Source of the DNA: Dipteris shenzhenensis
Taxonomy: Eukaryota
DNA length: 64,000 nucleotides
Reading direction: 5' to 3' (one strand)
NCBI GenBank assembly: GCA_047967505.1
Contig: CM106538.1
The notes under the pieces are model-generated. The model did not search any database. It was not told the origin of the DNA and saw only the letters and a program-made list of their open reading frames with translations. Position numbers and translations under genes: made by a program. Below are positions 3,901-64,000 of the stretch, piece after piece; position 1 is the stretch's first letter, and each line of letters opens with the position of its first letter.

Positions 3901-4990
3901 TCTCTATGGTCTTAAGCAAGCGCCTAGAGAATGGTATAAGAAGTTTGATGCTTTCATTCGGTCCCAGGGTTTTAGAAGGAGTGAAATTGATCACTGCCTC
4001 TACGCTAAAAGAGCTAAGGATAATAGCCTGATAATCTTGGCACTATATGTGGATGATATGTTATTGGCTAGCAAGAATACCTATGAGCTAGATGCATCAA
4101 AGGCGAAGTTGCATGAGGCCTTTGATATGAAGGATTTGGGACTTGCAGGTCATATTCTTGGTATGCGCATCACGCGTGATCGGAGTAGGAAACTCCTTTG
4201 GCTTTCACAAAAAGAGTATATTATAAAAGTATTGCAGTGTTTCAATATGGAGGGGGGGAAGGCAATGAGTACTCCATTGCCTCCATATGTGAAACTGAGT
4301 CATACAGATAGTCCCAAATCAAATGAGGAAAGGGCCATGATGGCCAAGGTTCCTTCTGCATTAGCAGTTGGGAGTCTTATGTATGCTATGATAGCTACTA
4401 GACCAGACATTGCATTTGCAATGGGAGTTGTTAGCCGGTATATGGCTAATCCAGGAAAGAGGCATTGGGAGGCAGTTAAGTGCATCATGAGGTACATGAA
4501 GGGTACCAAGGAGATGTGCATCTGCTTTGGTAGAGGAGACGCGTGTACTTGGGTACACAGATTCAGACTATGCAGGGCATGTGGATAGTAGGAGATCCAC
4601 TTCTGGTTATGTGTTCACCTTTGCAGGTGGTGCAGTGTCATGGATGTCTCGCGCACAGAAGTGCATTGCTTTGTCTACCATAGAGGCTGAGTATGTTGTA
4701 GCCATAGAGGGTTGCAAGGAGGCTATATGGCTTGATCAACTAGTGGGAGATTTGGGGATTCATACAGGTGTACCGACATTGCATAGTGATTCCATGAGTG
4801 CTATACAGCTAGCACGGAATCCGGTCTTTCATGCAAAGACCAAACACATTGAGGTCAGGTACCATTTCATCAGGGAGGTACTTGAGGACAAGCGCATAGA
4901 GCTTGTCAAGGTTCATACATATGATAACCCTGCAGATATGCTGATGAAGAGTCTACCTAGTTAGCGGTTTGAGTATTGTTGTGTATTGAT
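939..4990 (+). mobile_element. Ty1/copia retrotransposon gag-pol, decayed (gag, zinc knuckle, protease, integrase, RT, RNase H); 3' LTR missing
   Basis: ATG at 939 gives MASSSMFEKEFFSIKKFDGTNFSLWKEQI (TAG at 1050). Motifs: CYHCGKKGHMKKDC, WILDSGAS, LWHCRLG..CEHC, HSDVCGP/DNGGEY, YKARLVAKG/MDVKTAFLHG/LYVDDML, DSDYAG/TKHIEVRYHFIRE. Copia order (IN before RT). Stops or frameshifts near 1050, 2691, 3520, 4530 and 4962. Confidence 0.96.
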
Positions 4991-10538: not shown

Positions 10539-12780
10539 ATGTTGTTTTTGATTAGATGAGTAGCTGGTATAAACCAGTAAATGTGATGATTGATGTAGAT
10601 GCACAAAATGGTAATGCTGCACAGAATTCACAGCAGCAATCACAAAATATCAGTGGACCTGTAGTGTCCTCTAGCAGTGGTTCACATACTTCGCCATGGA
10701 CAGGCAGATTGAGATCAGGAGAATCTCCTCAAAGCAATGCAGATAGTGGTATGCAGGTATCACAAAAAGGAAAAGAGAAGGTAGATCAGCCCATGTTTGA
10801 TGTGAATGCAGGTCACTCTTATGTGGATGGTGAATCCAGTGGCTCAGAACAGAGCATTGATGATGAGTTGGGTATTCCTTCTATTGTTACACCTGGAGTA
10901 AGGAAGACCATGGATGTTTTGAGAGCACCTGGAAGTGAGACTATTTTGCGCAGGTCTACCAGAGCTAGGTATCTTGTGGATAGGCTGAAATATGATGGAT
11001 TTACAGCCATTCACTATGCCTATATGGTCAAAGTGATACAGCAACCAGAACCCACTTCTTTTGAGCAAGCCATGGGAAATGAAAAATGGGAGAAAGCCAT
11101 GGATGAAGAAATGGATGCCTTGGAAGCAAATGCTACATGGGAATTGGTGCCTTTGCCTAAAGACAAGAATGCAATTGGCTGTAAGTGGGTTTATAGGATC
11201 AAGCACAATACAGAAGGTTCTGTGAACAGATACAAGGCAAGATTAGTTGTCAAGGGGTATGCACAGACATATGGCATTGATTATGAAGAAACATTGAACA
11301 GTCTGGTTGCAAGGATGGCAACTGTAAGAGCAGTCATTGCTATGGCTACATCAAAGGGATGGTCTTTACATCAGATGGATGTAAAGAATGCCTTCTTGCA
11401 TGGTGATTTGCAAGAAGAGGTCTTTATGGAGCAGCCACCATGTTATGTTCGTGCTATTCATCCTGAGTTTGTTTGCAGGTTGAAGAAAGCCTTGTATGGC
11501 TTGAAGCAAGCACCTAGAGCATGGTTTGACAAGATAGGACAGTATCTTATCACTATTGGCTTTCAGATTTCCAAGGCAGATTTCTCACTCTATGTGAGAA
11601 AAACAGAGAAAGATATTATGCTGCTTGTTATTTATGTTGATGATTTGATCATCACAGGTGATAGTGATGAAGATATCCTTCATGTGAAAATGCTATTGAA
11701 GCAGAAGTTTGAGATGAAGGATTTGGGAGAGCTGCATTATTTCTTGGGCATTGAGGTGATTAGATCACCAAGTGGGATACAGCTCTTGCAGAGGCAGTAT
11801 GGATTGGACATGCTGTCCAAATATGGGATGACAGGGTGTAAGCCTATTTCAGTTCCTTTGGAGCAGAATGTGAAGCTGAGCACAGATGCAGGTGAGCTTC
11901 TGGAAGACCCTACTATGTACAGACGCATAGTAGGAAGTTTGATTTATATGACTATTACCGAGCCAGATTTAAGCTATGCTATTGGATTGGTAAGTTAGTT
12001 TATGCAGGCTCCAAGGAAACTGCATTTGGATGCGGCTAGACACATACTCAAGTATGTGAAGTCCACATTGCAGTATGGACTATTTTATGAGGCTGGGGTT
12101 CAGATACAGTTGCATGGATACACTAATGCTGATTGGGCTGGTAGTACTTCTGATAGACGATCTACCAGTGGATATGTGTTCTCTTTTGGGAGTGTTGCAG
12201 TCACCTGGAGCAACAAGAAACAGCCTACAGTTGCCTTGTCGAGCACAGAGGCTGAGTATAGGGGTGCAGCAATGGCTGCATGTGAGGTAGCTTGGTTGCA
12301 TAAGCTACTTTATGATATGCATCAATCTATAGATGGGCCAATTGTCATTTATTGTGACAACATGAGCAGTATACACTTGGCAAATAACCCAGTCTATCAT
12401 GCTAGAACAAAGCACATTGAGGTGCATTATCACTATGTGTGGAAGAAGGTTTTACTAGGTCTTATTAATCTAGTTTATGTCAGCTCAGAGGATCGGGTAG
12501 CTGACATATTCACAAAGGCATTAGGCGCAGAGAAGCTGCATAAGTTCAGAGACCTGCTTGGTGTGCAGGAATTGGGATTGAGCTCGAGGGGGAGTGTTGA
12601 GATATCGAGCTCCACTCGTGATATGCCAGGGTGACCGTTGTGCATTTATGTCACCGACTTGTTAGCTGCAGATGCGGTTGGTACACCGCCCACGAATAAT
12701 AGCTGGACGATAGCTATCCTTATCTACTCTAGTTCGTGGCTCAGTTAATATGCCACCTTAGTTAGTTGAGTTTGGTTTGA
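10536..12780 (+). mobile_element. 5'-truncated Ty1/copia element (integrase tail, RT, RNase H, PPT, start of 3' LTR)
   Basis: DVVFD* tail, YKARLVVKGY, MDVKNAFLHG, IYVDDLI, ADWAG, TKHIEVHYH. In-frame TAG at 11996. PPT gagggggag at 12586-12594 is followed directly by TGTTG (LTR start 12595). LTR end not resolved. Confidence 0.93.
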
Positions 12781-37052: not shown

Positions 37053-37453
37053 CATTAGGGAAAAAGGGAACTCATTTTGGGGCCCTGTAAGAAATTCACT
37101 ATTTTTTGATTTATTTCTCTCCTAAAAGACCTCAAAAATAGTAAAATACGGAAACGTGGCTCAGATTTGTCAGTAAGGACTACAGAACTGTCAATTCAAA
37201 AAGGAATAAGATAATCTTTTATCTGACTAACACGATTTTGTATTAAATATCCTCTTAGATTTTTTTTTGTTTACCAAAGATTCCGCATCTCTTTGGCCGA
37301 CGTGTGCAGGTCTTTCATTAAGAGTCCATCACTGAACTTAGTGATTGCAAGTTTTCAAAATATTCACATGGATACCGCCACACTTCCACGATTCATGTTA
37401 CAAAACGACTATGAGATTGAAAAACAAACTTCGCAACCTGAGAAGCACAAAAA

Positions 37454-39594
37454 ATGGCCGATACTAGTGAGTCACTATCTGAGAAGAAGCGATTACACCA
37501 TCTTCACATCGACTTAGAAGAACAATATGCTCCAGCACAAAAAAGACGAAAGGATATGGTGCTGAATGCTCAACAGCGGGAAAATATGAGAAGAGAAGGG
37601 CTTCAACATATTGACTTATGGTGCGATGGAAGCATATATCCAAAATGTCAAGTAAAAAACTCTACACCTCCATTTGTCAATCCCACCACATTACTGAGGT
37701 TTGCCGGCGATGGACAAAATGGACTTCTTGGTTATATTTCAGCACAGTCTGCATTTGTGGAAACGTATAAAATGATGTACCTACAAGAAAAGGGGGCCAA
37801 GATGGAGGAGATAGCCATTCATGCAAAATTGGAGCAGCAGTTGCAGAATGAAATTAAGGAGCATTCAAAGAGTAAAAAAGAGTTGACAAGAGCAAGAAAG
37901 AAGAGAACCGTGCTTGGAGACAGACAACGTAGCAGGAAGATTAAAAACATTGCAAATTTGAAGGCTGGGACTGGTGGATGCAAGCGACGAATTCAGGAAG
38001 CAAGGTTAGATTGAAATTTATCATTTTGTATACTCAAAAAGGCTCTCTTCCAGACTATATCTATTTCGTTGATTGTCGCAAAATAAGAATGGAGGTGCTG
38101 AATAATATAGTCATATTGTGTTGTTACAATAGGAAATTATTGGAGCCTGCAAAAGAAAATATGGACCCGAACCTTCTTCCTGTTAAACAAATGAAAGGAT
38201 TGCTTTCTTGCGGTGTAGCAAAAGGTTTGATTGAGGAAAAAAAATACAAAACAGTCAAACGCAATGTTGTAGAGGACTTTGTATCCAATAATCAAGTTGA
38301 TGGCACTATAATCCAAGAGGCTCTTGATGTTAGTGGAGTTAGTAGGAAGGGATATAGTTCGATTTTCCATGCGATATCCTCAACTTTGAAAGATCAAAGG
38401 ATTAAACGAGTTTTACTACCAAATCCAGCAACCGTGTGGAGGATAAGAGGTCATTTGAATGAAAGTATAGATGAATTTATTGGGCAATATATCCATATTG
38501 AAGAAATATTTCATGGTGTTAAAGGAACCACTGTGTATGATCCTTGGAACAATATATTTTTAGATCTGCAACAACTTCAAAAAAGAATGGTCGAGTTTTA
38601 TGGAATAACATTTGAGGAGTGCAAAGGCATTTTGAAATTTGTTATCAAACTGGATGAGTGTGAGGTTGTAAAGGAAAAGAAAATGGAAAGAGTTACTATT
38701 ACATTGATGAATGGAGCGATTGATACATCATTGACTGAAGCGAGTTCGAAGTATTTTAGTGTGCAGTCAGAGAAACACATATGGTGGTTAGGCTCCAGGT
38801 ATGATCATGGGTTGTTTTATACTTGATTTTGGTCATTGTTTTCAAATCTGATATAGTAATACTTTTGTTTTCTATAATCTTGCAGGTGAAGACCGAAGAC
38901 CATGAAACACTAGATTGGGTGTTTCACCACACGGAAATACCAAGAATAATCAAAAGACAAGTGCAAGGCGAGAATCTCCATGTTGCAGGAAAAGGTGATT
39001 TTCAAGTAGAGTGGCACATGGCCGGGGATCTTAAAACACTTAAGTGCATGTATAACATTAGTAAAGGAGGCAACTCAAAGTCTCCTTGTCTTTACTACAA
39101 AGAATCAGCTCAAGTAATGGATTCAAAATGGTGGAAGAGAGCACCTAATAGAGATAAAGTTGACCCTGACTTCAAGGCCATTCTGGACATTCCACTATGT
39201 AATGTTCACATCTGCACATTGCATGGTCTATGTCGAATTATTGAAAAATTGGTATTTTTATATATTGGATTTGCTTGGAATCTCCGTCCCGAAAAAAATA
39301 GAAAGGATGCTCTTCAAGCATTGGAAAAAGTGTTATCCGATATAGGTCTGCATGGAGGAGATGTTCAAATCACAAAGGATTTTAAAAAGTCTACCAATGG
39401 CAAGGAGGTACCAATCAAGCCCTCTATTGGTGGTGTTAAGCAAGAAGATTCTTGTCTCGACCCAAACACAGTAAGCAAGTAAGGCAAGGTAGAGCAGTTT
39501 CAAAGATTAATTATGGATTGTGGAAGCAAGTCCATAATGCTGTGAAAGATCATGAGGCAGATGGGGAAGCACGAAATAGGAAGGCAGAGGTGTG
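37454..39594 (+). pseudogene. RAG1/Transib/Chapaev-like DDE transposase, 3 exons (37454-38004, 38133-38798, 38886-39594), 3'-truncated
   Basis: FVIKLDECEV (first Asp); SVQSEKH..VKTEDHETL (cf. RAG1 KPNSE..DESDHETL); MAGDLKTLKCMYNISKGGNSKSPCLYY (cf. RAG1 GYDEKLVR..SVYICTLC); ICTLHGLCR. Frameshifts near 38795 and 39440; abrupt switch to unrelated coding sequence at ~39594. Confidence 0.75.
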
Positions 39595-40761
39595 ACATCT
39601 GAAGCTTCTGAAAAGGAGGATGTTTCTTTGGTCACAGAAATGGCAGAGCAAGAAGAAGATATCAACCTTCAGGATGAGGGGCTGCAAGTGGCTGCTCTTG
39701 ACCTTGTTCAACTGAGGACAAAAACTCTGAGGGGAGCAGAGCCAGTTGAAGATTTTGATGTTCAGAGCAGCAACTATGCAGTGCCCATGCTTCCAGGTGT
39801 GTTGATTGGTGGAAAGGATTATGTTTTCCTCCATGATATAGAGTGTATGTTTGATTTGAGGGAGGACTATGCCATTTCCCTTATTGCCCAGGCTTCAAGG
39901 CTTGACAAGGAGGTTGGCATAGAGGATGACCATTCACTACTGGCTTTGGAAACAATGTTTGATCCTGTAGAGGCCCTTTCATTTTGTTTCAAAGAGGCTG
40001 AAAAGTTCCAAGAGCCAGATGAAGCTGCCTTCCAGCTCACACAGGAAGCAATGAATCTCTCAGCACTATACACAGAAAAGCCTAGAGAAGAGGCTGGACA
40101 AGAAGGGAGAGGGATAAATCTTTGGAAAGATGAACTGCTTGTTGCTGATGAAAATGAGAAGGTACTTCAAATCATATACTTTGACTTCTGCTTAACTTTG
40201 GTTTTGTAGGTTGTGTATTGTCTCACTCCAATCCTTTGATATGTTGCAGCTACAAATTGAGGATGACACATTCCTCCAGAGATCAAGTGGAAGCAGGCAG
40301 GTTGGGTTTCGCAAAATGTCAGGCCTAGCTCATTATATTCATGATCTAGGCAGTGCCAAGATCTTGATTTACCATAGGCAGTTGAGCAACAATGGAGAAG
40401 TGCTCTTTCATGGCAAAAGGAAAAGATCATTTTGATAGAGAGGTTGTCTGCCATAGATATATTTGGAGATTATGTGAATAAGCAGGCCTCTAGGGCCGCT
40501 TACTTTTTGTCTTACACTTCTTATGCATTAGCATGTGGTGTTAAGGACCCCAAATATCTGGAGGGCTATGGAAAACACCAGCTCGTAAGGTTTCGAGAGC
40601 CACCCATGATTGCATCAGGCCACACAGTCCAAGAAGAGGAACAGGTGGAGAGAGCTGAAGAAAAGGATAAAGAGACAGTCGACATCAAGCCAATAAAGAA
40701 GAAAAAGACTCCAATCAAGATAAAAAAGAGAGTTCCGATCGGCAGGCCCTGGGAGAAATAG
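39595..40761 (+). pseudogene. 5'-truncated cargo gene of unknown function (intron ~40162-40209)
   Basis: An acidic 205-aa open frame is followed, after a GT-AG intron, by a frame with several TGA/TAG stops running into ERLSAIDIFGDY..KKKKTPIKIKKR (NLS-like). Confidence 0.55.
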
Positions 40762-41109
40762 GATTTAGTCATCGAATATAGCACAAACATTATATTAAAT
40801 TTGAACTGATTTGTATAAAGTCTGTGATATCTGGTATGATCTTGTATAAATGATTAATAAGTTGATGATGAAATGATTTGTACATTTACATAGAGTGGTG
40901 TCGTTAAATATTAAATGAACAATATATTGAAATTGTAAACAAATTGTATTAAGTTCAGATCATATGTTTCACATTGAAATACTTTTCATGCATAACACCA
41001 AGAGTCACTTGTTCCACTAAAAAAATTTCTATTGAATGAGTTTGAAAACATGTGGACATAACACCAATAAGTTACAAATGAGTCCTATTCATGTTTACTT
41101 GTCCATTTA

Positions 41110-43000
41110 TGGTTTCTAAATATCTTCGATTCCCTCCATTGTCTATGTCTCTCTGTTGCAATTGAATTGTCTAGAGCTTGTCTTCGTCTTTGCTTTTGGG
41201 CTAGAAGAAAAGCAAGCTTGATTTTGGAGCTAGCAACTTTTCTTTTAGCATGCAACCTCTATAGTATGCCTCGGTAAAACCATTGGAAGACTTCCTTCAG
41301 ACTATTCGCCTTTTCTGACTCCCTCCATAGTGTTGTGTGTGTCTAAAAAATGCATTACGTGCCATGTAGTGAGACTTCTCCATGCCTTGGGTAGACCAAA
41401 TAGCTGGGCATCCATACTTTTTGACAAAATAGGGAAGGTGGTTGTATATGATATGCTGTAAGACATAAGAATGCATAGTAAGTAATAAAAAAAAAGAAGA
41501 TCACACTTAAGTAAAAGAAAAAGACATAACCTTACCATGTAGTGAGTTATATTGCAGGCTGTCCACGTTGAGCACTCTGCACTTTCTGGTGTGCAAAGTA
41601 CAGTTGAATTTATAGTGATCAGGCAGGCTGTCAAATCTTCTGTTCACATGGTACCTCAGCCTGTCATTGGAGACAATATGATTTAGGTGCACAAAAACCT
41701 TTTCTCCTCCCACAATTCTTCCTGCCTCTGTCAGTTCTTTGAAGGCATCCCAATAGTCTAAAAGAAAATCTTTGTGCTGCTCCAGTACAGAGCTCATTGT
41801 GAACTCCATGTTGAAAATACAGTGGTATATATGGAAGTTACTCTGAGCCTTGCATTTGTGAAGAAACTCAAATAGGAGCAAATCTGGAGAACTGTCCTCT
41901 TCTGGTTCCATTTGTTTTTTGATGGAAGAATCAGCACTCTGCTCCAGCCTCTTCTTTTTGCCTGTTCAAAAACTTATATACTATGAATTCTATATGCTGA
42001 CATATGCAATCAGTGAATGCATTGTATATCACTAGATAATTCCTTCATGACATCTCATCACTCACCTGGTGATTGCTGTGGTCTAATAATAGCAACAGAA
42101 AAGTCCAGCTTCCTCTTGAAAGGTGGGGCCTAGGAGCCAGTTGTTCCAAAACAAAAACATTTCTCATCATCAAGGAAGATTTCCACAGGGCTAAAGATAG
42201 CAAATTAATGAGGTAGAAGTGAGAAACAAATAATACACAGGAATTTGCAGCAAAATGCGATATGGGCTGTTTAGAGAATTGTAAACCACTCTCCTCGCAT
42301 TTTGTTGCAAATTCTCAAATTCTGTTCATGTGCATGTCAAATCAAGCACTTGGTTCATCTCAGTGATTCCTGGACACTATGATCTCATATGCAAGAGAAA
42401 TAATGGAATGAGTGAAACTATTCATGAGGAATGTGTCAACAACAAGAATTTGCAGCAAAATGCGATATGGGCTGTTTAGAGAACTATAAACCACTCTCCT
42501 CGCATTTTGTTGCAAATTCTCAAGTTCTGTTCATGCGCATGTCAAATCAAGCACTTGGTTCACCTCAGTGATTCCTGGACACTATGATCTCATATGCAAG
42601 AGAAATAATGGAATGAGTGAAACTTTTCATGAGCAAGGAGTCCACAACAGGAATTTGCAGCAAAATGCGATATGGGCTGTTTAGAGAATTATAAACCACT
42701 CTCCTCGCATTTTGTTGCAAATTTCTTGTTTCTATTCATATCAACCTACAATCTAATTTCTGGGTGATTTACCACATTCTTGAACAGTATTAATTGAAAA
42801 TGTAAGAAGAAGGATGGAGCTGAGTGAAGACATTGGGACATCAAAAATCCAATGGATGGAAGAAATAAATGTTGAAAAACATTGAAACCAAACTAGAATT
42901 CTGACCTTTTTTTTCCTTTTCCATGCTGATTGAGTTGCACTGGTAAATCTCCTGCTCTTTCTCTAGCTTGAACTTTGCACTCTAGGTAACCTGGAGATCT
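41110..43000 (-). pseudogene. Multi-exon cargo gene of unknown function, divergent from the H3-like gene
   Basis: Exons at about 43000-42906, 42190-42066, 41962-41533 and 41458-41110 with GT-AG boundaries; a 134-aa open core (MEPEEDSSPDLLLFEFLH...). Confidence 0.5.
42241..42725. repeat. ~205-bp tandem repeat (2.4 copies), each copy with a hairpin
   Basis: gaatttgcagcaaaatgcga...tcgcattttgttgcaaatt begins at 42241, 42446 and 42651. Confidence 0.92.
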
Positions 43001-43194
43001 GGCAGTACTGTCTTCAGGCAGGTTGCAGTCTGGATGGAGTGTGCTGGGTAGGAAAGGATCAGAGAGAAGGAAATGGAAGATGCGAGGGTCGTGGCAGGGA
43101 TGAAAGATTGGAATCCAGGGGAGGGAAAAGTGGTTGTGGTATTGATGATGAAATCATGAATGGCACAAGTTCCAAGGAATAAAGTGTACTTTCA

Positions 43195-43272
43195 CACGTG
43201 CCAAATTTCAAACTCCAAGAGATCTGAGTCCCATCCACACGTGTGAAAAACGACTAGATTCCACACGTGTGG
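43195..43272. promoter_or_regulatory. Cluster of three G-box palindromes between divergent genes
   Basis: CACGTG 43195-43200, CACACGTGTG 43236-43245, CCACACGTGTGG 43261-43272. Confidence 0.5.
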
Positions 43273-43485
43273 GATTTAGTGATTCTTTAATTCTATTTGC
43301 ACTTATTTGTGGTATCCTGTTTTAGACCTCTTGCCCTCCAGTCTCTGCTCTCTTGCCTCCCTACCTCCATACTCTGCAGCATCAGCATCTTGTCCAGCAG
43401 CACAGGTTCATCCTCAGCACAGATTACTCCTCAGCAGCACAGCACATCCACAGATAGATTCCAGGTCAGTAACAATGGGTTCTCC

Positions 43486-44421
43486 CCTTAGTCTCTACAA
43501 TCTTCTTGCCTAAAATAGAAAAAATACATCCTGTATGGAAATGCATAGACTCAAACCAAGACAGAGAAATCACTGTAGGAATGTAGATCTTCAAGTGTGA
43601 TATTTGCATGTGATCTTCTTGCATAACCTCCATTCATACTGTATTTGGTTGGAGAAACATAGAAATCACTGTAGGAGTACACCAGCATGTCATTTAAAAA
43701 ATTTGTAGCAAAATGCGATGTGGACCTGTTTGAAATTCCAAACTGCTTATATCACATTTTATTGCAAATTTCTCTATTTGGCTTCTTCCACCCCTGTGAT
43801 TGCCTTTTCTTTGTTAGAACATGTTCTGGTTTTGTGACTTTCATAGCTATAATCTTCTTGCATAAACTCCATTCATACTGTATTTGGTTGGAGAGACAAA
43901 GAAATCACTGTAGGAGTGCACCAGCATGTCATTTCAAAAATTTGCAGCAAAATGCGATGTGGACCTGTTTGAAATTCCAAACTGCTCATATCGCATTTTA
44001 TTGCAAATTTCTCTATTTGGCTTCTTCCACCCCTGTGATTGCCTTTTCTTTGTTAGAACATGTTCTGGTTTTGTGACTTACCTTAGTCTCTGCAATCTTC
44101 TTGCCTAAAATAGAAAAAATACATCCTGTATGGAAATGCATAGGCTCAAACCAAGACACGGAAATCACTGTAGGAATGCAGATCTTCAAGTGTGATATTT
44201 GCATGTGATCTTCTTGCATAACCTCCATTCATACTGTATTTGGTTGGAGAAACATAGAAATCACTGTAGGAGTGCACCAGCATTTCATTTAAAAAATTTG
44301 CAGCAAAATGCGATGTGGACCTGTTTGAAATTCCAAACTGCTCATATCGCATTTTATTGCAAATTTCTCTATTTGGCTTCTTCCACCCCTGTGATTGCCT
44401 TTTCTTTGTTAGAACATGTTC
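43486..44421. repeat. Three tandem 230-355-bp repeats in the presumed 5'-UTR intron of the H3-like gene, each with a hairpin
   Basis: Units at ~43486-43840, ~43853-44080 and ~44082-44421. Hairpin aatttgcagcaaaatgcgat..atcgcattttattgcaaatt at ~43700, 43939 and 44295. Donor ag|gtcagt ~43465; acceptor ~44459-44467. Confidence 0.9.
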
Positions 44422-44471
44422 TTCATGTCTTTGATCTCTTTCCAATCCTTTGTATGCAGTTTTTCAGAGTG

Positions 44472-45292
44472 ATGGCAAGAACCAAGTCAACTGCAAGGCA
44501 AGTTGGCAAAGGACCAGGTCTTGCAGCAACAACAGCTGGGGCAGGTACCAAGAAGTTTAGTGTGCCTCCAAAGGGAAGAGCTTCACATGGCAGGAAGGGT
44601 AAGCCAATGAGCTTGCTCAAGCAAAAGGCCAAAAGATTGAATAAGGGTGCAGGTGTGCTAAGGGAGATAAGGAGGCAACAGAAAGCCATAGGCTTTGCAA
44701 TACCCAAAGCACCCTTTCAAAGACTGGTGAGAGAAATTTGTGACAGTTGGAACCTTGGGTTCAGGTGGAATAGAACTGCCATTCTTTCCTTGCAGGAAAT
44801 GGCAGAGGATTACCTGGAGAAATATTTTGAGGATGCAATGCTTGTAGCAGCCCATGCTCACAGGGTGACTTTGATGGCCAAAGATTTCAACACTTTGTCC
44901 AGAGTGAGATGGAGGTATGACAAGCTAGTTCATCCTGTGGAATGGCAGGACATCAAAATGAGAGATATATTGCTAATTCCACCTACAAGGAAGGTGAAGG
45001 TTGATGAGGTAAAGGTTGTTGAGGTAACACACTCAAAGAACACCAGAGGGAAGGCTGCTTATGAGGACTCACTGAAGCAGCAAATAAAAGAAACAAAATC
45101 TGTTATAGATGTGGAGACTGGAAAGAAGGAGCTACAAATACATAGAAGGTTGAAGGAGCTGGGCCCTGATGTAGTTGTACATATTGAGGATGAAGTTTCA
45201 GTCAATGATTTTGATTTGACAAAACAATGCTTAGCAGCATTGGCTAACAAGAATGAGTATTGCTCAGATACTATCATTCTTGCAATGCTCTA
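44472..45292 (+). CDS. Histone H3-like domain plus linker (exon 1 of an H3-Ulp1 fusion gene); open frame
   Basis: MARTKSTARQ...VLREIRRQQK..IPKAPFQRLVREI..RWNRTAILSLQEMAEDYL..FEDAML.AAHAHRVTLMAKDF aligns to the H3 fold without gaps (to ~44909). It continues ~125 aa to YCSDTIILAML, where the apparent TAG overlaps a TA|GTGAGT donor. Confidence 0.92.
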
Positions 45293-45383
45293 GTGAGTGT
45301 CTTTAAATTTTACATTTTTTGCAAATCAATCCTCCTTGTAACTCCTTTATAACCTACCCTAATTATGTTCTGATCCTATGCGG

Positions 45384-46572
45384 CATGATGAGAAGCTGGC
45401 TTCACCCCTCTGTACAACATACAGTCCATATTGTTGATCCAGCCATTTCTTCTAGATTAAGAGATGCAAAGGAGACTCCCATGAGTATTTCCAGCTGGTT
45501 CAAACACTGCAATTTTGAAGTAATTGACATTTTGCTACTTCCATACCATAGCAGGTATGTGGGTGACTACTTCTTTTAAGATTCTTCTTTAATATTGGGA
45601 ACTCTTGTAGCCTTTCATTTTCTTATGCTTTTTTCCTTATGCAGTGACCACTGGAGTTTTGTGTCTATTGACATCCAACAGGAGCAATGCACTTTCTATT
45701 CAACTCTCTAAAAAACACACACAGAGAGCTGAAATTGTAAGTGTTGTGTGTGCTTTTTGAACTTAAAACTTCATTATTTTGATACCATACTAACTAAATT
45801 ATACATATTGCAGTTGTATTAGAAGGCTATTAGATGCATTGGATCATTGTCCTCCAAATGTCTCTCTGTTGGATTCAATAGAGCCAATAAGTCTAGAGGT
45901 AAAAAGTCTATTAAATGCTATGTCTTTGAACTTATTGAATAATTTTGTTTTGTGCTGATGCTCACAGTTTCTAACATTTTTTTCTAACTGTACAAACACC
46001 ACAACAAAATGATTCAAGTAGCTGTGGATGGAGGGTGCTGATCAATGCAAAATATATACTTTCAAGCTACTTTGAAAAGGAACAGCCAGATCTGGTAAGG
46101 AAAAATACTTTTCATTTAGCTTGAAGATAATTCATAATGATACAAAGTGTTCTAAATTATCCTCTGCCATTGCAGATGAAAGAGGATAGCTTCAGCCCCA
46201 ACTATGTACATAATTTTAGAGCTCATACAATTTGGAGGTTTTTGAGCTATGCCTCCCCCAAACCTATTGTACCAGCTACTGTGGAGCTGGGTGAAAGCTC
46301 TAAAGTACAAGAAGGTGTCATACACCTTGATCCCACATATGAAGCACCTAATGCTGAGGACTAGAAGCCACAGGAGCAATCACAGAGTGCTGAGGAGGAG
46401 CAGACACAGGAGCAAAGACCTGCTACTGATGTTGAGGAGAAGGTGGAGAAGCAGCAAAGAGAGGCTTCTGGGGCAGTGGAGGAGACAGGATGGAGCACGG
46501 ACAGGATGGAGCAGCAGAGAGAAGATCCTCCAGAAAATGTAGAGCAGCCTCTGGATGAAACTGTACATAAAT
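45384..46572 (+). pseudogene. Ulp1/SENP (C48) cysteine-protease exons and acidic tail of the H3-Ulp1 fusion
   Basis: Phase-compatible exons 45384-45554, 45645-45736, 45814-45898, 45996-46094 and 46176-46572 give IDILLLPYHSSDHWSFVSID..Y/NSL..TPQQNDSSSCGWRVLINA..VHNFRAH. Lesions: 1-nt deletion ~45700, two decayed acceptors (45382, 45995), TAG at 46362. Confidence 0.82.
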
Positions 46573-46658
46573 AGAAAATGGATGTTAGAAATATGTTCTA
46601 CAGATTCAGCTAAACAATTCTGTACAAAATCTTACTTGATTGAATACAAAACCTTTCT

Positions 46659-48097
46659 TTATGGAGTCTGTGTTATCTCAATTTTAAAATTTTCTATGTC
46701 TTTGCATTTAACTGAGCTCTCTCTTCTTCTGAGTAACTGCGAAAAAGCAATATGAATTAGAGTGGTAAATTAAACTAATAGCAATGCTTAATGAGACTAG
46801 GATAAATCAGATGGTGTACCTTTCTGTTCTTGTAGATAAATAAAAAGTCGTTTGAGATAGAACCTTCAGTCTCAAACAGAATGTCACTGCGCAATTGAGC
46901 TAGGGAGCAACATTCTCTTAACGAGATATTGGCTACCACATCACCATTCTCAACAACATCAATATCAATAAGTTTATTTTCTGCACCAAAAGACTCTTCA
47001 TCTTGATCCATTGGGACAAGCTTTGTGCCTAGCATTCGACTGCGCTTGTAATAAAAAGAGAAAATAAAATTTTGTGATGCAACCATGTACTTCAGTTGCA
47101 TAGAAGGTTGGACCACCTCACAAAACACTGAACTACATGTCTTCTTATCCCAACCTTTATCCAAAAATTGTGGCATGCATGCCGAATTTGTTGCTTTAGC
47201 TGTGAACATTGTTTTTGAAACCTTTACTGGAAAGGTATTAAACAAGTCTACAAAAACTGTGAGAGGCATGCACAAAGAAATTTTTACTATCCTAGTGGCA
47301 ATATTGGGCCTCAGAGCTTTCTGTACTTCTGTAAAAAGCTTTGCCCTATATGCCTCTGTAACACTAGAATGTGGGTGAGGCCAATCCACCGAATTCCATG
47401 CCGGAAGGTCTTGTTTTATTAATACACCATGTGTGTTAGCTTTGTCCAGAAACTGATAAAAATGATCAGTAAAAAATATACCCGATTGAGCTAGCTCTGT
47501 TGCACATCGACCTTGGTATTGTTGTTCTCCTATCGATCCATGCAGAACATCTATAAATCCCAGAATACAATCGATGTTTTGCCATGTCTCATACGATGAA
47601 GGATATAAATCTGAAATAAAACAACACAAGAATGTCAATAAGTTAAGAGAGAAAGCTTCATCTTAAAAATCCATACACCTCATGAAGAAAAAAACCACAA
47701 TAGAAAAATATACAATTAGGCCTGTGTTGCGGAAGATTTTTTGGATAGTCTCACAAGACAAGTTCTTTATGCATGTACACGTGCTGAATCAAAACTTCTT
47801 TCACGGATATCTTCCCTTTGGTGATTTTAAAATCTCGTACTCTTCCCTTCCACGATGCCAAGAAAATGTTTTTTGTCTGGGGTCTTTTTCTTTTGCTAGG
47901 TTGCATGAGCACCCATGCTCCTTTCGAAACACTAAACCTTTCCCAAGTTCCTTCTGTTTTGACTGTACTTGAATTCTCTACCGACGAAATGAAGAAGCAG
48001 GTCGACGGGGTAAGGATGTTTGGTATAATTCTGCCTTCGTAGCATTATCATCCACAGAGCGTCTTCCACAAGAACGACCGTGGTTTTGGTTCACCAT
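46659..48097 (-). pseudogene. Probable BAH-domain protein with C-terminal ubiquitin-like domain (exons ~48097-47714, 47610-46820, 46736-46659)
   Basis: Spliced translation FSVSKGAWVLMQPS..WKGRVRDF..VLIQHVYMHKEL..RPNYLYPSSYETWQNIDCILGFIDVLH..GIFFTDHFY follows the BAH pattern. The C-terminus SLAQLRSDI..FLFIYKNRKLLRRRES looks beta-grasp-like. One in-frame TGA (~47751) and a 5' frameshift. Confidence 0.55.
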
Positions 48098-48599
48098 GGA
48101 GATTTTCTGAATCTGTAACAATAGCAAAGTAATGTAACTAAGATAACAATTTGAAGTTTCAAGAAAGAGAAAGTGGGCAAACAGACAGTTGACGAGAAAC
48201 ATCTTACTCTACGCCAAACAGGATCAAGGGAGCAGTTTTGGAAAAGAAAGGCTGTTGCACAATGAGGCAATGGTGTAGAATGGTAGACCTTTCGCACGAA
48301 AGGCGGCACAACATTTGAAAATTCAAAGGAAGGTGGAAGCGGGAAGGATCTTGTCAGATAAAATGTCAGTTTAGATTCTATCTTCTTGTCCAAAGATCTT
48401 CTAAGAATAAAAAACCAATCTCCTCATTAATGTAGCACGCTTGTACTTACATAAAGTATTGTTTCTTTTTTCTATTTTCGTGAATTTTCAACGTTACGTT
48501 GGCCTTCTATTGATTGGTTGAGAGCTTATTTTTCCAAACCGTAAAAGGCCCCAAAATGAGCTCCCTTTTTTCCTAATGCATTGGATGGTCACCACAAGG

Positions 48600-51541: not shown

Positions 51542-54158
51542 TGTTGGTAAGCTAAAAGGAAAGGAAAGAGTGGACACAAACTCAGAATTCTTGCATTACT
51601 TGCATTATGGAATGAAGAAGAGTGAGGTCCTTAAGTAGGCACCTCATACATGCTCACTGACATCACTGATGACTTCAGAGCTCCACAATCATCTCCTCAA
51701 TCTGCTCCTAGATTCTCTCAATCATCCTATGTGGCTCTCCACCACCTAACTGTGCTTGTGGGCACCTAACTGTGCCTCTAGCACTCACACATAGAAACCA
51801 AGGTGTGCCTGAGGCATACACCTTGAGATATCCCATCAAACCCCCCCTCAAGGGAATGCCTCAGGCTATGTCAAGGATACATCTAGTCTCATAGTTTCTC
51901 ATGCCATCTCATGGTGGTCAAGGATGAATCTATGGCTAGGTTCTCATGCTAGCAAGGGTTCCCATGGGTGTAAGGTAAACAAAAGGGATACAAAAAGACC
52001 TTCCAATGGTTATCTCCCCTGCATGTACATGCACACAATGTCTGCACATGGAGCAAAACATACACATGGCCTACATCATAAGGTGACCAGAGGTGTTTAC
52101 AAAACACACAAAACACAATAGTTTATTTCATTCATTTTGGAGGACTATCCAGGCTGAGTACCTTGACATAAAAAGAGAGATCTGGAGCATACATAGAGAT
52201 GTTTTAAAATGCATAATCTTCAAAGGATGCCTCATCTTGTGGAGGCTCATCAACTGAAAGTAGATTTGCATTTTCTGTCTTTGCTTTGGCTCTGCAAAAC
52301 TTCTCATTATGGTTGTTCTTGCCACAGTGCTTGCATGGATTAATTTTGAAGCAATCCTTTGAAAGGTGATTTGTCTTTCCACAGTGATTGCAAGGAGTAT
52401 ACTTGCCCTTCTTAAATTTTTACAGCATAAACAGTGTCATTGCCTTTCCTGAGCTCCATATGCCTTTCTTCTTCTTGGAGAGCAGAGATAATACCTTCAA
52501 GATTAGGATTAGGAAGATTTTTCAAAGTGGTAACTATGTGATCATAATCTTCAGGCATACTCTTAAGTAACACTGCCATAGCATCATCTGGAGTAATAAG
52601 AGAGTTGATAGAAGCTAATTGAGTCATAAGACTCCGCATATAGTTGACATGAGCTGCTAAAGTAGTACCACTAGCCATCTTCAATTCAAAGAAAGAGATT
52701 TTAAGTGATAGTTTAGAGATGTGAGAGCTAGCACCAAAAATCATGTCAAGCTTCTGCCAAGCTTCTGAAGGAGACTCCAAGTCAGAGATATGGTGAATAT
52801 AATCATCTCCTAAAGCAAGAGCAATGATTACATATGCATTTTCTTCTCTAGCTGGATCCCTTGCCGGTCGTGTCGGAGTTGAGGATTCTCCAGCATTGGA
52901 GGCCGTAGAAGAAGCGGTAGGAGTCAGTTTGACAAGTCCCCATAAGTTCTCCCTCATCAATGCAAATTTCACCTTCATCTGCCATGTGCGGAAGCCCTTT
53001 CCATTGAACTTCTCTAGATTCAATAGGGTAGCCATGAGAGGGTCTAACCCAGATATTGGGCAGTGTCTTTCTCTCTTACAAGGCAAAAAATAACTGAAAA
53101 ACTTCCAAAATATGAGCACTTGATGTAGCAAAGACTAGTGACCAATATTCAATCAATGATGCTTCTTCTTACATGCTTCATAGAAGTGGCTAAAATGAAT
53201 AACCAGGTCTAGCAATTCAAAACAAAACTGAAGCCACACTTGTACTGAAGTTATTGAAAGATTCAAAAAACCAGAAATGCTAGAGTAGCATTTTATGTAG
53301 CATCATCTTCAAAAACTTGTCCAAAACTATCAAAACTAAAAGGCTGAACTTGGAGGGCTTGTAGCTCACTCTTCAAAGCAAAGGAAAAGGGGGTTTTTAA
53401 GGCAAAAGAGAGCTGTTATACCACAAAAGATCCTCTGGGAAGAAGAGGCGCAAAAAGGCATCAGAACTCCATAGCTTGCCTTTCCAACGTCGACTGGTTT
53501 TTCTCTGTTTTCAGCTTGAATAAGCAACCATTGTTGCTCAGATTTCAGCACAGGATAGCCCAAGGCATGGAGAATCTACCCCTGAAAGGAATTAGAGGAA
53601 GATAAGGTGTGCTGAGAGAAAACGCAGAAGGAAGAATCGACGAAAATCGTGTAATGGCGACGAAACGGGCGCGGTTTTCTTTGATTCCTCTCAGCCAGAG
53701 GTTCACCCCTTCAAGGTGGATCTCCAGCAGGAAGGACGTGGGAAATGGCTGAGAACCGGAGAGCTTAAGCAAACTTTGGGAAGAAGAGGGAGAGATGGTG
53801 AAGAAGAAGATGATGATGTGGCAAAAATGGGCTCAAGGGGGATCAAAGGGCTCTGATACCATGTTGGTAAGCTGAAAGGAAAGGAAAGAGTGGACACAAA
53901 CTCAGAATTCTTGCATTACTTGCATTATGGAATAAAGAAGAGTGAGGTCCTTAAGTAGGCACCTCATACATGCTCACTGACATCACTGATGACTTCAGAG
54001 CTCCACAATCATCTCCTCAATCTGCTCCTAGATTCTCTCAATCATCCTATGTGGCTCTCCACCACCTAACTATGCTTGTGGTCACCTAACTGTGCCTCTT
54101 GCACTCACACATAGAAACCAAGGTGTGCCTGAGGCATACACCTTGAGATATCCCATCA
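51542..54158 (-). mobile_element. Structurally complete gag-only copia-type LTR element
   Basis: 297-bp TG..CA LTRs at 51542-51838 and 53862-54158 (5 substitutions by eye). TSD GAATG at 51537-51541 and 54159-54163. PBS TGGTATCAGAGC at 53850-53861; PPT at 51839-51850. No pol. Confidence 0.96.
52204..53035 (-). pseudogene. Copia-type gag with two zinc knuckles (frameshift ~52415)
   Basis: MATLLNLEKFNGKGFRTWQMKV..LLKSMPEDYDHIVTTL, then CNHCGKTNHLSKDC and CKHCGKNNHNEKFC; stop at 52204-52206. Confidence 0.9.
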
Positions 54159-59687: not shown

Positions 59688-60556
59688 TCAAATTATGTTC
59701 CTACGCTTTAGGAAATAGTACTTCCGCGCTCTAGCTGGATGGCCCTCGAGCGTGTTGTAACCTAATGGACCTACTGTGTTGTGGCTCCTTATGTAGTACT
59801 GCTCTAAAGTTCGTGCTTTGTCTACGGTGTCTGTTGTTTCCAAAACTTTGATTTCGAAATTTTCTTCGAAGGGCTTGTAACGTTGCAAGTCCTCTTTCAT
59901 TTTCGCCAGTGGTTTTTTATTGTGCTGTTTGATCCTCCGCGGCAGGTCCGTCGTGCTCCCTATGTATTTTCTGTTGTTGGGCTTGCACGTGATGCAATAG
60001 ACGACGAGGCTCGCGCGATTCCCTTGCACGGGCGCTTCAGTGGAGGCTCCTCCTTCATCTCGAGGCTCGCGTCTTTCAATGTCGTCCCTGCGTAAACATT
60101 GACAATTACGTTAGTCATCGAGGTTTTCGGTCTTTTTTTTTCCGTTTGACGTCCATAATAGAATGCATTTATTTACTTGCCCTGGTTTTTCTCTGTTGCC
60201 GTGAAAGGATCGTTTCCAATACCGAAGCGCTCCTCGTATAAGTCCCTGTCGAAAATATACGTAAGCTTCTCCATTGTCGTCACCAGGTGCGTCACGTCGT
60301 GCATCCCTCCAAATTGTTCCATGAATTGTTCGAGTATAGCCATTGCTTGATCGCGCGCCGTGTCCCTCAGCAACTCCAAGGATACGTTGTACCCGTAATG
60401 CAGTAGCTCGCACGCATACGCTGTGATCCCTTTCGTCTTCGTGTCTAGTAGCTTCTGCCCCTCCAAACTTTCCATCATCCTATCGGTCTCATCGAACTCA
60501 ATGTCAAGCTCGACAAGGATCTCTTTGAGGAGTCCTGCAGGAGAAGTGCAATCCAT
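59688..60556 (-). CDS. Two-exon GIY-YIG endonuclease gene (60556-60177 + 60087-59688) with an unknown N-terminal domain
   Basis: VVYCITCKPNNRKYIGSTTDLPRRIKQH..LEQYYI..GYN. A GT-AG intron at 60176-60088 joins the two ORFs in frame with no stops. Confidence 0.85.
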
Positions 60557-61117
60557 GATGTTCTTGCAACTCGTTAATTCTTTTTCTCAACTGTTGCAGT
60601 TTTATTTAATTTTCGGAAGCATTACGCACCATTTGCGAATCTCAAGCCTCCTGGCTCTCTTTTAGCTGGCAAACGCCTATTGCAGTTGTCAATGAAGTCG
60701 CGTAGTTCCGCATACGTGTTGAAGCCGTTGATGTAAGCTCCCGGACGTTCTCCTGCATTGTTTGCTAGCCGGAATTGCTTTGTGGTTAGGAAGAACCTCC
60801 TCTTTGCTGGTGGAGGTTTTGTTGCCTTCGCGTTGCTTTTGTATAGCTCAAATAGCTGCTTGCAGGCACGACTTATTACACCGTCTTTTCAAATGAGCCG
60901 TCTTTTTAAATCTTCAAGAAAAAAAGATTCTTTCATGCTGGTGGAATTTACCTTGTCTGCGTCCATGTCTTATGCTGCAATGTCCTGAGCTTTATGATTC
61001 TCTGCACCTGTTCTCGACAACAGACAAGATATTAAAACCATTTTCCTTGCACGCATGTTTGACGTAACATATTCATGACTTGCCTATGCCTTTTTCAATC
61101 TCTGGTAGTGAATACCT

Positions 61118-62955
61118 TTATGCGCGTGGTTGTGTTGTCGACTGTGAGAACTCTCGTGGAATTGGTCTGAATATGTCTGGATGTGGGCAATGTAGTATGC
61201 GCAGCCTCGTTCTCTCAGTCACTCTGGACAACATCACGTATGCCATGCCAGGGGCAAACACTCCTCGGAATATGAGCAGCGCTTTGTTGGATATGGTTGC
61301 GCCTTGGGATTTGTGTCCCGTGATAGCGTATGCTAGGGTTAGTGGAAATGTGGACTTGTGGAACCATTTTCCATTTATTGCCTTTCCCTGATGCTTCGAG
61401 CGTCGTAATGTGAGCACGGCCGCCGTTGTGTCCATGACGACAGTGATACCGTTGATTTCCCCCCTGCTAGTTGCATTGATGCTCTTGATTTTGCACATTG
61501 CTCCATTTGCGGCACCTATGGCGAGGTCAATGTTTTCCGTTATCATTGCCTTCGCCCCCACGCAAATTTTTCCTATCTCGTTGAAGCTTTTGTCCTCCAA
61601 CCATTCTTTGAGAGCTGGTTCGCTCGCGGCGTTACTGTGTATTTGAACATGCACAATCATCTCGGGAGTGTTGAATTTCTCCACAAGCTCATCGTTGAAG
61701 GTAGCGACATCGACTCTGTGCGTGCAAATGATGGTTGTTTCGGCATCGATGAAGTGGCATGCACCTTCCTTGTCGACAATGCACTGCCCCAAACAGTCGA
61801 AAATCTCGTCAGTTGTGGGCGTCCTGAGTCTTATGGTATGCAAGAATGCCAGGAACGGCATGTCTCATGCATGTCGCATCGAGAATTGCATGTGGTACAT
61901 TTTCGCTTGAACCCAGTGCACGGAGGACGTGATGTGGCATGGCTCGCAGAGATCCTCGCGATGTTTGCAGACTGGCGGTAATTGCGCGAGGTCACCAAAA
62001 ATTATGAGCATTTTGTGTCTAAATGGCTCATGCAATGTGCCATTAGTCACATTGACGATTTGTCTTACCACGAGATCGAAAGTCATCCTTGTTAGCATGG
62101 ACATCTCGTCAATGATGATCACGTTGGCTTCCTTGATTGCGAGGTGTCGCTCATCCGTTTCATGGATGTTCAGTGGGTACTGACTGCTGCGCACAGGGAT
62201 CTTGAATTGGTAGTGTACAGTGGTTGCAATCCCGCTCAGCTGCGTCGCAACCGCCCCTGTTGATGCACAGAGTATTGTTGTTTTGTTTTGCGCTACCAGA
62301 TGCGAAACATAGTACCGTATCAAGAAGCTTTTGCCGCTACCTGGTGTTCCACAGACAACGTGCAGCCCCGAGCTTGTTGAAGCTAGGCTTTCGAAGACTC
62401 TTTGTTGTTCTACTGTCAATGCGGCATTGGCGAGCGACGGTGCGAAACTCGGCCATTTTTTCCAACATCCTCGCGCGTGTTGGCCCTTCGACGGTTTGCT
62501 GGTCGATGTTAGGCGCTTCCATCGGGCAGTCTCGGATGATTCAAGACCAACCGTTCCACGTTGCGTTTCCTTGGGCTTTCGTATCACATATTGCCTATGG
62601 AATCGTAGAACGTGCTCTCCTCGATGACGCTCGGTCTCCCGCAGTATATGTCGACCGGGTGCAGGGTGACGTTGTTGTTTCGCGAGACGATGCGTTGTCT
62701 TAGAGATGGTGGCGAGGAGTCGACATAGTGAACGGTCTCGCTCCTTGTGATTGTTGGTATCTGCATGCAGTTTAGCGCGGCCTCTGTTGGAGAGGTTGGT
62801 TTTGATAGGAGGCTCGCGGCGATGAGTTTCAGCTTTACTTCGCCGAGATGTTGCAACCCCAAACGCGAGGCGTCTTCTGAACGGATGTTCAGTTTGCCCA
62901 TTGGTTCAGATTTCATCGCGTACTTGAGGAGGTAGTGAGAGATTGAAGAGTTTGT
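61118..62955 (-). pseudogene. Helitron-type Rep C-terminus and PIF1 helicase, lightly decayed
   Basis: HYLLKYAMKSEP, SPTEAAL, GTPGSGKS, IIDEMSM, GDLAQLPPV, GAANGA, FPLTLAYAITGHKSQGAT, YVMLSRV. TGA at 61865; frameshifts near 62440 and 62585. Confidence 0.9.
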
Positions 62956-62957
62956 CA

Positions 62958-63410
62958 CGCAGAGATCAAGTTCAAGAGCCGAGACAGAATGCTCCACACA
63001 AACGCAAAGAACCCTTACGACCGTGGCAATAAGTGGAGTTCGGTGCCCTTCAAGTACCCCTCCACCTTCCAAACTCTGGCAATGGATCCCTCCCAGAAGC
63101 AAAAGATCCAGGAGGACCTCACCGATTTTGTCAACGGCGAAGCTTTCTATAACAGGGCAGGCCGTTCCTGGAAGCGCGGGTATCTTCTGTATGGACCTCC
63201 TGGTACAGGCAAGTCCAGCATGATCGCTGCCATGGCCAACTTCCTGCAATACAATGTCTACGATTTGGAGCTCACTGAGGTAAAGTCTAACGCAGAACTC
63301 CGAAAGCTTCTTATCCGGACGAGCAACAAGTCTATTATAGTTATAGAGGACATCGATTGCTCGCTGGATTTCTCCGACAGGAAGAAGAAAGCTGAGAAGT
63401 CTCCGTCACG
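62958..63410 (+). pseudogene. Fragment of plant BCS1-like AAA-ATPase
   Basis: WSSVPFKYPSTFQTLAMDP..WKRGYLLYGPPGTGKSSMIAAMANFL..IIVIEDIDCSL. The N-terminal domain and the downstream TLSGLLN..DG region are both absent. Confidence 0.9.
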
Positions 63411-64000
63411 TAATTCAACCTCTCTTTCAAACAAACAACGATTGATGATCTAATATATGAGTTGAAGGCAAGTAAGGAAGTAGAAGCAAACCTGATTGTG
63501 ATGATGAACAAACAGCAACACACTTGAAATTTTATGTTTCTCCTATATTTAAAGGTTTTGCCTTGGCTTTTTACGCAGTTGGCTTTTTACGCAGCTTTTG
63601 GGCTTTCAGAATTTAAAAAATCTAAGGGTGTATATTGTGCCATGTGGAAGCACAGGATTTCAGAATTTGGAAAAACGTCCTAGTGCTGGCCAAGTAAATA
63701 GGGATTGGGCCAAAGTCCCTTGTGGAAGAGTTGATTCGAGACAGGTGCAAACGGCAACACACCTGTAGGTGAGGAATAAGAAAGCTGTCTTGGGCAGTTG
63801 ATTGCCGGCCTTGAAGGTCTTCTCACGTTAAATTGTTCCGACAATGTTTGTCAAGCAATCTGTTCTGAGCGTGTGACATGCTGGTTTTCATTCAGGCTTT
63901 GATAGGGAACAATGGATGGAGCTCTTTGAGCCTACAGGGAAGACTGTATCATGTTGGAACAATTCCAAATTTGAAATGGAACATCTACGCTACGGATCTA

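Follow-up and report, generated by a model that had tools for sequence, protein, structure and literature searches.

A fern gene family joining a histone H3 fold to a C48 protease domain, and its decayed copy in a candidate DNA transposon of Dipteris shenzhenensis

Can one gene begin as a histone and end as a protease of ubiquitin-like modifiers, and, if it can, does such a gene belong to the host or to a mobile element? The question is raised by a stretch of 64,000 nucleotides (nt) from Dipteris shenzhenensis (assembly GCA_047967505.1, contig CM106538.1; the whole stretch is called the window below, and positions are counted from its first letter), in which a preliminary description had placed, at 44472-46572, a transposon-borne gene fusing an H3 fold to a protease of the Ulp1 type. 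We find that the fusion is real: it defines a multi-copy fern gene family with named members in two Adiantum species, whose product is a single polypeptide consisting of an H3 N-terminus, a full H3 fold, a family-specific linker, and a cysteine-protease domain of family C48 (Ulp1/SENP fold). The observation itself is confirmed and its interpretation as a whole is partly supported. We hold it moderately probable that the window contains a decayed copy of a transposon-carried H3-C48 family whose members act as chromatin- or chaperone-directed proteases of ubiquitin-like (UBL) modifiers, against silencing.

The fusion gene, its relatives and its decay

The window gene opens at the ATG at 44472 with a frame of 273 codons that starts MARTKSTAR and closes in a TAG at 45291-45293. 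Residues 45-141 match the Pfam Histone domain (PF00125; E 4.7e-27, 95.1 bits against a cut-off of 26.4) and the frame runs on past the fold, as had been described: compared with an H3 of about 136 amino acids (aa), it holds about 130 further codons in exon 1 and is followed by five more exons. The apparent stop is overlapped by a GT splice donor (CTA/gtgagt), again as described, and exon 1 ends in phase 2. The MARTKSTAR tail and the complete H3 fold are encoded in exon 1 (44472-45292, plus strand) together with a conserved linker (..KMRDILLIPPTRK..), after which the C48 domain begins with its first ~35 residues. Because one uninterrupted exon leads from the fold through the linker into the protease, here and in many ORF-called relatives (ORF, open reading frame) that end precisely at this conserved exon-1 boundary, the fusion is independent of gene models.

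In Adiantum nelumboides and A. capillus-veneris, a word-index search with exon 1 returned proteins with an H3 domain that are 499-551 aa long. The family was extended by a HMMER search with one relative (P0003), by cluster look-ups, and by a search with a second relative (P0019), giving a collection of 174 proteins; the post-histone linker of the window is matched by 53 of them at E <= 1e-3, which puts the size of the family at 53 or more. Family proteins are already present in public databases as hypothetical proteins. No description of a histone-C48 fusion was found in searches of the full-text literature, supplementary tables aside, which agrees with the preliminary description's statement that none was known.

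Exons 2 to 6, all on the plus strand, were placed by homology and splice signals, and the predicted model joins them in phase, with an X at a frame break in exon 3. Exon 2 (45384-45554; ..VHIVDPAISSRL..SSWFKHCN..LLLPYHS) encodes part of the C48 domain; exon 3 (45645-45736) holds the catalytic His (DHW) and an Asn-Ser at the Asp-Ser position, besides the frame break; exon 4 (45814-45898; CIRRLLDALDH..) has a canonical AG and GT and is collinear with P0008 and P0003; exon 5 (45990-46094) carries the oxyanion Gln and catalytic Cys in QQNDSSSCGW; and exon 6 (46176-46571, with a TAG at 46572-46574) encodes the C-terminal part of the C48 domain and then an acidic tail. The motifs first listed for this gene (DHW, NSL, QQND..SCGW and the acidic tail) are present in this model. 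Its predicted donors are GT in five of five cases and its acceptors AG in three of five, the others being GG before exon 2 and CT before exon 5 (..taact/GTA, with no AG); an alternative in-phase AG lies at 45394-45395, inside exon 2 of the window copy.

In pairwise alignment the joined window model is collinear with two A. capillus-veneris proteins, P0003 and P0008. P0003 is without precisely window exon 3 and P0008 without precisely window exon 5, so that the exon limits are common to the window and to Adiantum. When relatives were searched against the window by tblastn, exons 1, 2 and 5 were recovered, the matches of P0003, P0019, P0169, P0171 and P0010 to exon 5 beginning at 45990 or 45993, and no second copy of the fusion gene was found in the 64 kb. 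The claim that five in-phase exons rebuild a C48 protease is therefore borne out by collinearity with the Adiantum proteins, with one amendment: the break formerly bridged by allowing a 1-nt deletion consists of two extra nucleotides, which have the same effect on the frame.

Could the product instead be encoded by exon 1 alone, as an H3 variant that carries a long extension after the fold and ends in the TAG of 45291-45293, with protease exons that are separate or dead? The frame does end there, and gene callers have produced many exon-1-only proteins. We nevertheless consider this highly unlikely. The final ~35 residues encoded by exon 1 already belong to the protease domain, forming its N-terminal segment; the GT donor that overlaps the stop joins exon 2 in phase; an AG acceptor is present at 45382-45383 in related copies; and the Adiantum gene models join both parts.

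The related copies come from contigs of three DNA runs (X1, X2 and X3), 85-99% alike, which cover pieces of the gene; none spans it whole, and their cover of exon 5 and of most of exon 6 is zero or nearly zero. Runs X2 and X3 are labelled 'algae metagenome', so samples of this kind may contain the host plant or one of its close relatives. In contigs of all three runs position 45382 is A, where the window has G, so these copies have an AG acceptor exactly at the 45292/45384 junction: the position of the junction proposed earlier holds, whereas the acceptor of the window copy is GG. The exon-1 donor reads GTAAGT in contigs of all three runs. In exon 3, the window has two extra nucleotides near 45690, leading to a TAA, that are lacking in one contig of X1 and in one of X3; with these two removed, exons 3 and 4 are open and read SDHWSFVSIDIQQEQCFLFNSLKNTH....

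A further lesion is found in exon 6, where an in-frame TAG at 46362-46364 splits the protease part from the acidic tail of 69 codons, which continues in the same frame to the TAG at 46572-46574; the tail first reported is present, but is cut off from the protease in this copy. With two non-AG acceptors, the exon-3 frame break and the in-frame TAG, the window copy is a decayed pseudogene, while its relatives appear to be unbroken at those lesion sites that the contigs cover. The protease half had already been called decayed, and these lesions bear that out; the NSL in place of DSL, by contrast, belongs to the family, as set out below.

Traces of selection were sought in a sample of 40 of the 88 differences between the window and the contigs, of which 29 fall within exons. 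Synonymous changes make up 17 of these 29 coding differences, the other 12 being nonsynonymous, where random changes in exon 1 would be expected to be synonymous in 22% of cases (binomial p 2e-5, or p 0.004 if one third is expected); since the differences are pooled and not independent, this excess is an indication only. Within the histone-fold codons 66-138, all seven of seven differences are synonymous.

A search of metagenome contigs for the exon-1 linker gave 267 pattern matches and no relatives. Seven IMG/VR contigs (L001-L007, seven loci) carry H3-like sequence that is 39-41% identical to exon-1 residues 1-146 or 1-156, and tblastn found no linker or protease sequence in them; their H3 genes are ordinary or viral ones, unrelated to the fusion. 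A viral origin of the fusion was dropped, the seven viral contigs matching H3 alone.

The histone part and the protease part

The family profile matches solved H3 chains in the PDB at about 1e-31, and in the family alignment the histone fold retains PFQRLVREI and AAHAHRVT-M-KD, followed after the fold by a family-specific motif, RYDKL..P....D.KMRDIL.IPP.RK. The N-terminus of the window protein reads ARTKSTAR, as compared with ARTKQTAR in canonical H3. Among the 18 non-redundant family members with a complete N-terminus, R2, T3, K4 and T6 are each retained in all 18, A1 and R8 in 17, and A7 in 16. Position 9 is variable: K in seven members, R in five, V in three, Q in two (Q is the residue in the window), and W in one; one related contig has K at the position-9 codon (44499 C>A). 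The ARKS motif of the K27 type occurs in none of the 18.

Arabidopsis H3.15 and sperm H3.10 are variants without silencing lysines, whose tails are unable to receive K27 methylation and which counter silencing. The fern family has in common with them a tail without a K27 methylation site; it differs in that H3.15 and H3.10 belong to the host and have the usual length of an H3, whereas the fern proteins have a variable K9, no ARKS motif, and about 300 extra residues after the fold.

Modelling of the histone part with H4, suggested in the preliminary description, was carried out for window residues 50-175 with an H4 taken from P0021. The predicted complex scored 0.83, whereas the best of three controls reached 0.00; at least 80% of contacts agree between runs, and the predicted local distance difference test score (pLDDT) of the partner is at least 72. 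Among solved complexes, 51 of 78 attain the mark used for this score, as do 2 of 108 mismatched pairs. As H3-H4 is a solved textbook pair, the score of 0.83 means likeness to H3-H4 and is not proof of binding.

The protease part is harder to recognize. Scanned singly against Pfam, window exons 2 to 6, which are too short, gave no match, and membership in C48 therefore rests on the relatives and on the fold. Both domains are found in P0019 (Histone 2.6e-23; Peptidase_C48, PF02902, 25.6 bits against a cut-off of 20.7), Peptidase_C48 scores 22.8 bits against the same cut-off in P0051, and Histone and Peptidase_C48 are both present in the precomputed annotation of P0170; P0003, P0010 and P0171 fall below the C48 cut-off, and P0008 has no C48 match at all. 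The check by Pfam that had been proposed thus succeeded for the histone domain on exon 1 and for C48 in P0019 and P0051, but not for the single protease exons of the window. By sequence, the domain lies far from typical Ulp1. The protease part of the window locally matches 14 of the 174 collected relatives (best P0010 at 2e-24, then P0170 at 2.2e-22), and the window model matches the C48-tested relatives at 2e-24 to 5e-19.

The fold was tested on the relative P0170, not on the window copy. An AlphaFold2 model built from a 30-row family alignment has a mean pLDDT of 69.4, and in its protease part the values of most ten-residue blocks lie at 82-94. Foldseek places the model nearest to SENP2 (3zo5_A; E 9.8e-10, template modelling (TM) score 0.76), Ulp1 (1euv_A; 1.9e-9), and NEDP1 (2bkr_A; 4.6e-9), with 72 matches at E <= 0.001 and top-hit TM scores of 0.74-0.77 on the target. 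The full family profile returned mostly H3 chains from the PDB, and hence the profile was rebuilt minus the H3 part; it then matched the sequences of SENP8 (4.7e-6), SENP2 (7.6e-5) and Ulp1 (2.3e-4). In the profile alignment the last ~35 residues of exon 1 align to the N-terminal protease segment of SENP2.

Sequences covering the relevant positions retain the HW motif in eight of eight cases, Q..D...CGW in seven of seven, and WF (the second tunnel Trp) in nine of ten, and both tunnel Trp residues and the His, Gln and Cys align with those of Ulp1, SENP and NEDP1. The position of the catalytic Asp is occupied by NS in the window, P0008 and P0051, by ANS in P0019, P0169 and P0170, by ANF in P0172, and by SY in P0010. 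As the position is non-acidic throughout the family, the NSL of the window is a family trait and not decay of this copy; and with no acidic third catalytic residue, the C48 domain may be weakly active or inactive. In sum, the family has the fold of Ulp1/SENP/NEDP1 (MEROPS C48) and differs from these proteases in its Asn or other non-acidic residue in place of Asp, in its weak scores, and in its histone partner at the N-terminus.

The same residues suggest another reading, in which the C48 domain is a catalytically dead pseudo-protease that lacks Asp and serves as a module binding SUMO or another UBL modifier; the protein would then be a histone-like SUMO reader or decoy, and its carriage would be unchanged. 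Not one of the eight sequences has the acidic triad residue, seven have Asn at or next to the position and P0010 has Ser-Tyr, while both tunnel Trp residues are retained, which fits the binding of a Gly-Gly tail. A pure binding module, though, would have no need of the His (8/8) or of the Gln and Cys (7/7) that the family has kept, and Cys-His-Asn triads are functional in papain-type and some ubiquitin-specific proteases. We regard a pseudo-protease as possible, and rather doubt it.

The candidate element and its surroundings

Is the fusion gene, then, carried by a transposon? An inverted repeat brackets it: the left arm at 37053-37089 (CATTAGGGAAAAAGGGAACTCATTTTGGGGCC...) pairs with the right arm at 48542-48578 over 37 nt at 89%, and local blastn aligns 37053-37084 with 48547-48578 (32 nt, 94% identity, E 1e-8). 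The 19-nt core of the repeat occurs in the window at these two sites only, with none expected in shuffles. The 11.5 kb between the arms contain the fusion gene, a transposase-like gene, two tandem arrays, and a minus-strand ORF of 295 codons. A target-site duplication of 2-5 nt is absent at the inverted repeat, whose flanks read ..GTGGGC on the left and CATTGG.. on the right; the sole candidate for a direct repeat is a possible TA inside the inverted repeat. A reading of the CATTA termini as CACTA was rejected: they are one base off CACTA, and there is neither a 3-nt duplication nor a match to Transposase_21.

The transposase-like gene (37442-40209, plus strand) is broken into four open frames, at 37442-38014, 37945-38826, 38805-39482 and 39580-40209, and the fusion gene starts 4.3 kb downstream of them on the same strand. 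The frame at 37945-38826 matches residues 48-180 of the A. nelumboides protein P0171 (49% identity over 133 aa, E 4e-39) and also P0173 (58% identity over 69 aa), and both of these Adiantum gene models continue from the transposase-like ORF into H3-C48 sequence. A distant fern thus has the two genes side by side and in the order seen in the window. Carriage by a transposon, as originally proposed, is supported by this linkage, by the many paralogues, and by the bracketing inverted repeat.

An ordinary or domesticated family of fern genes that happens to lie in repeat-rich DNA, its transposase-like neighbour and inverted repeat being coincidental or co-domesticated, would be compatible with purifying selection, with the deep divergence between clades (35-46% identity), and with the lack of a target-site duplication. 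Such a host family is hard to square with the many paralogues in a single species (those of A. nelumboides are 82-96% identical, and several are truncated or merged with retroelement domains), with the decay of the window copy, and with the fact that the window and two Adiantum models have the same transposase-like ORF upstream of the fusion gene and in its orientation. We therefore judge it unlikely and retain carriage by a transposon.

To what kind of transposon the element would belong is less clear. Its assignment to the Mutator-like elements (MULEs) or to CACTA, implied in the preliminary description, is not supported, there being no Pfam transposase match: the six ORFs of the candidate element that were scanned gave no usable match even at E up to 10, and MULE, MuDR, VANC, hAT and rve-type domains were not matched on them. 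The sole lead, and it is a lead only, is to a transposase of the RAG1/Transib type. In the Atlas language-model feature search, the frame at 38805-39482 lies nearest to RAG1_RNase_H/ZnC2/ZnH2 clusters (0.96, 182/256 features) and that at 37945-38826 weakly near clusters of the RAG1 DNA-binding and pre-RNase-H regions (0.84). The former reads AGDLKTLK..SPCLYY and, later, H-x4-H, which we take to resemble the layout of the RAG1 zinc site; against PDB sequences it returned chance-level rows only, and its AlphaFold2 model, made without an alignment, is unusable (pLDDT 42.4). To our knowledge, no RAG1/Transib-like transposase has been reported from land plants.

Three further features lie between the arms. 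An array of 205-bp tandem units (42237-42851) and a set of tandem repeats with 239/356-bp spacing (43486-44430), directly 5' of the start codon, were found by TRF (Tandem Repeats Finder) and by a repeat search; a motif of 37-53 nt in the first recurs inverted in the second, and the two arrays might serve the element as promoter repeats or as repeats that bind proteins. The open frame of 295 codons (46775-47662, minus strand), which is just downstream of the fusion gene and convergent with it, has no Pfam match and may be a third gene of the element or a chance frame.

The window as a whole is repeat-rich DNA of the plant type, dense in transposable elements, which also counts in favour of carriage by a transposon. 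It contains copia gag, integrase and reverse transcriptase sequence at 1053-4964 and 10556-12634 and copia gag at 52412-53134, as well as ORFs of a mobile-element-like gene at 5497-7313 (plus strand), of which 6087-6872 matches Pfam DUF7869 (E 4.7e-47). Toward its end are ORFs for a GIY-YIG nuclease (59688-60110, minus strand; E 4.3e-15) and a PIF1-like helicase (61865-62905, minus strand; E 2.9e-27), and a fragment of an AAA-ATPase (62947-63453, plus strand) that overlaps the minus-strand stretch 59688-63405; this GIY-YIG/PIF1-like cluster (59688-63405) may represent remnants of the Helitron or Penelope type. An Rfam scan of the window gave no match.

Known systems and a possible role against silencing

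Ulp1 domains borne by transposons have been known for about 20 years, with their role still unknown according to a review (PMC13317346). As described there, KIU/KAONASHI, from VANDAL-type MULEs without terminal inverted repeats in Arabidopsis and other eudicots, is a fusion of VANC to a captured Ulp1, and elements that carry KIU cause hypomethylation of related elements. What it shares with the fern family is carriage by a transposon and a Ulp1 (C48) domain that is combined with another module in one protein; the differences are that the partner is VANC in one case and a whole H3 in the other, that the hosts are eudicots in one and ferns in the other, and that no MULE transposase domain was detected here. 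Neither the word 'histone' nor the word 'fern' occurs in the review.

Histone genes, too, have been described as cargo. A hAT transposon of the fungus Pyrenophora tritici-repentis holds a full-length, expressed H3-like gene (H3L) between its inverted repeats, and the gene has been amplified along with the element (PMC3538342, PMC6710886). Here the likeness is that of an H3 gene carried by a DNA transposon, and the difference that H3L is a separate ORF, without a protease, in a fungal hAT; no hAT domain was found in the fern element. Ginger1 resembles the family in that eukaryotic DNA transposons carry a Ulp1 domain (PMC2836005), but its transposase is integrase-like, whereas the candidate element gave no match to an rve-type domain. 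A preprint on the evolution of chromatin (10.1101/2021.11.30.470311) reports the capture of reader domains by transposons, and contains neither 'Ulp1' nor 'peptidase'. Neither KIU/KAONASHI nor H3L combines H3 with Ulp1; the domain combination is apparently undescribed, and new within a known kind of transposon-carried Ulp1 or H3 cargo.

Records of this kind also lend some credit to a functionless transduplicate, that is, a chimera assembled from captured fragments of host H3 and ULP genes in the manner of Pack-type transposable elements, Ulp1 capture by plant MULEs (PMC13317346) and H3 capture by a fungal hAT (PMC3538342) both being on record. The histone part of the fern gene, however, is full length with its start intact, the linker is conserved across 53 proteins, the coding differences show a synonymous excess, and the catalytic and tunnel residues are conserved; that the chimera is without function strikes us as very improbable.

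We hypothesize instead that the fusion gene and the transposase-like gene are cargo of one cut-and-paste DNA transposon, represented here by 37053-48578. The H3 part would pair with H4 and be treated by chaperones as H3-H4, or be incorporated into nucleosomes, and would thereby deliver to chromatin the attached protease, which would strip SUMO or another ubiquitin-like modifier off silencing factors there or off histones, and the removal of the modifier would help the element to escape silencing. With an H3-like tail that in most members lacks the K9 and K27 silencing sites, the histone itself might not be markable for silencing. A deSUMOylase activity and an anti-silencing role were already part of the preliminary description, and we, too, infer rather than observe them.

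Several points weigh against this hypothesis. An acidic residue at the position of the catalytic Asp is found in none of the eight family sequences, and the best match among solved sequences is the deneddylase SENP8, so that the modifier need not be SUMO. The synonymous excess comes from 40 of 88 differences pooled over three runs, with kinship and transition bias ignored. The inverted repeat lacks a target-site duplication, the ORFs of the candidate element lack a usable Pfam match, and the RAG1-like assignment comes from one feature search with low recognition values (1937 and 1735). Finally, how a histone-like protein acting in trans would favour its own element is unexplained.

A bolder form of the hypothesis would see in the family an 'unsilenceable' transposon histone, which has kept the K4 tail and the H4-pairing fold, has shed K9 and K27, and is joined to a SUMO/UBL protease, perhaps in company with a transposase of the RAG1/Transib type. 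Loaded into H3-H4 chaperone complexes or nucleosomes, such a protein would strip the SUMO-dependent silencing machinery from chromatin. We consider this full version improbable as it stands.

What the family offers in either form is an address for a Ulp1 domain: the H3 partner leads to the testable idea that the protease does its work at chromatin or within complexes of H3-H4 and chaperones. The tail, in which positions 1-8 are kept, K9 is variable and ARKS is absent, shows the kind of pattern expected of a counter-silencing histone. If active, the protein would be a natural chromatin-tethered deSUMOylase, and the family an example of a mobile element that encodes a histone variant for its own benefit.

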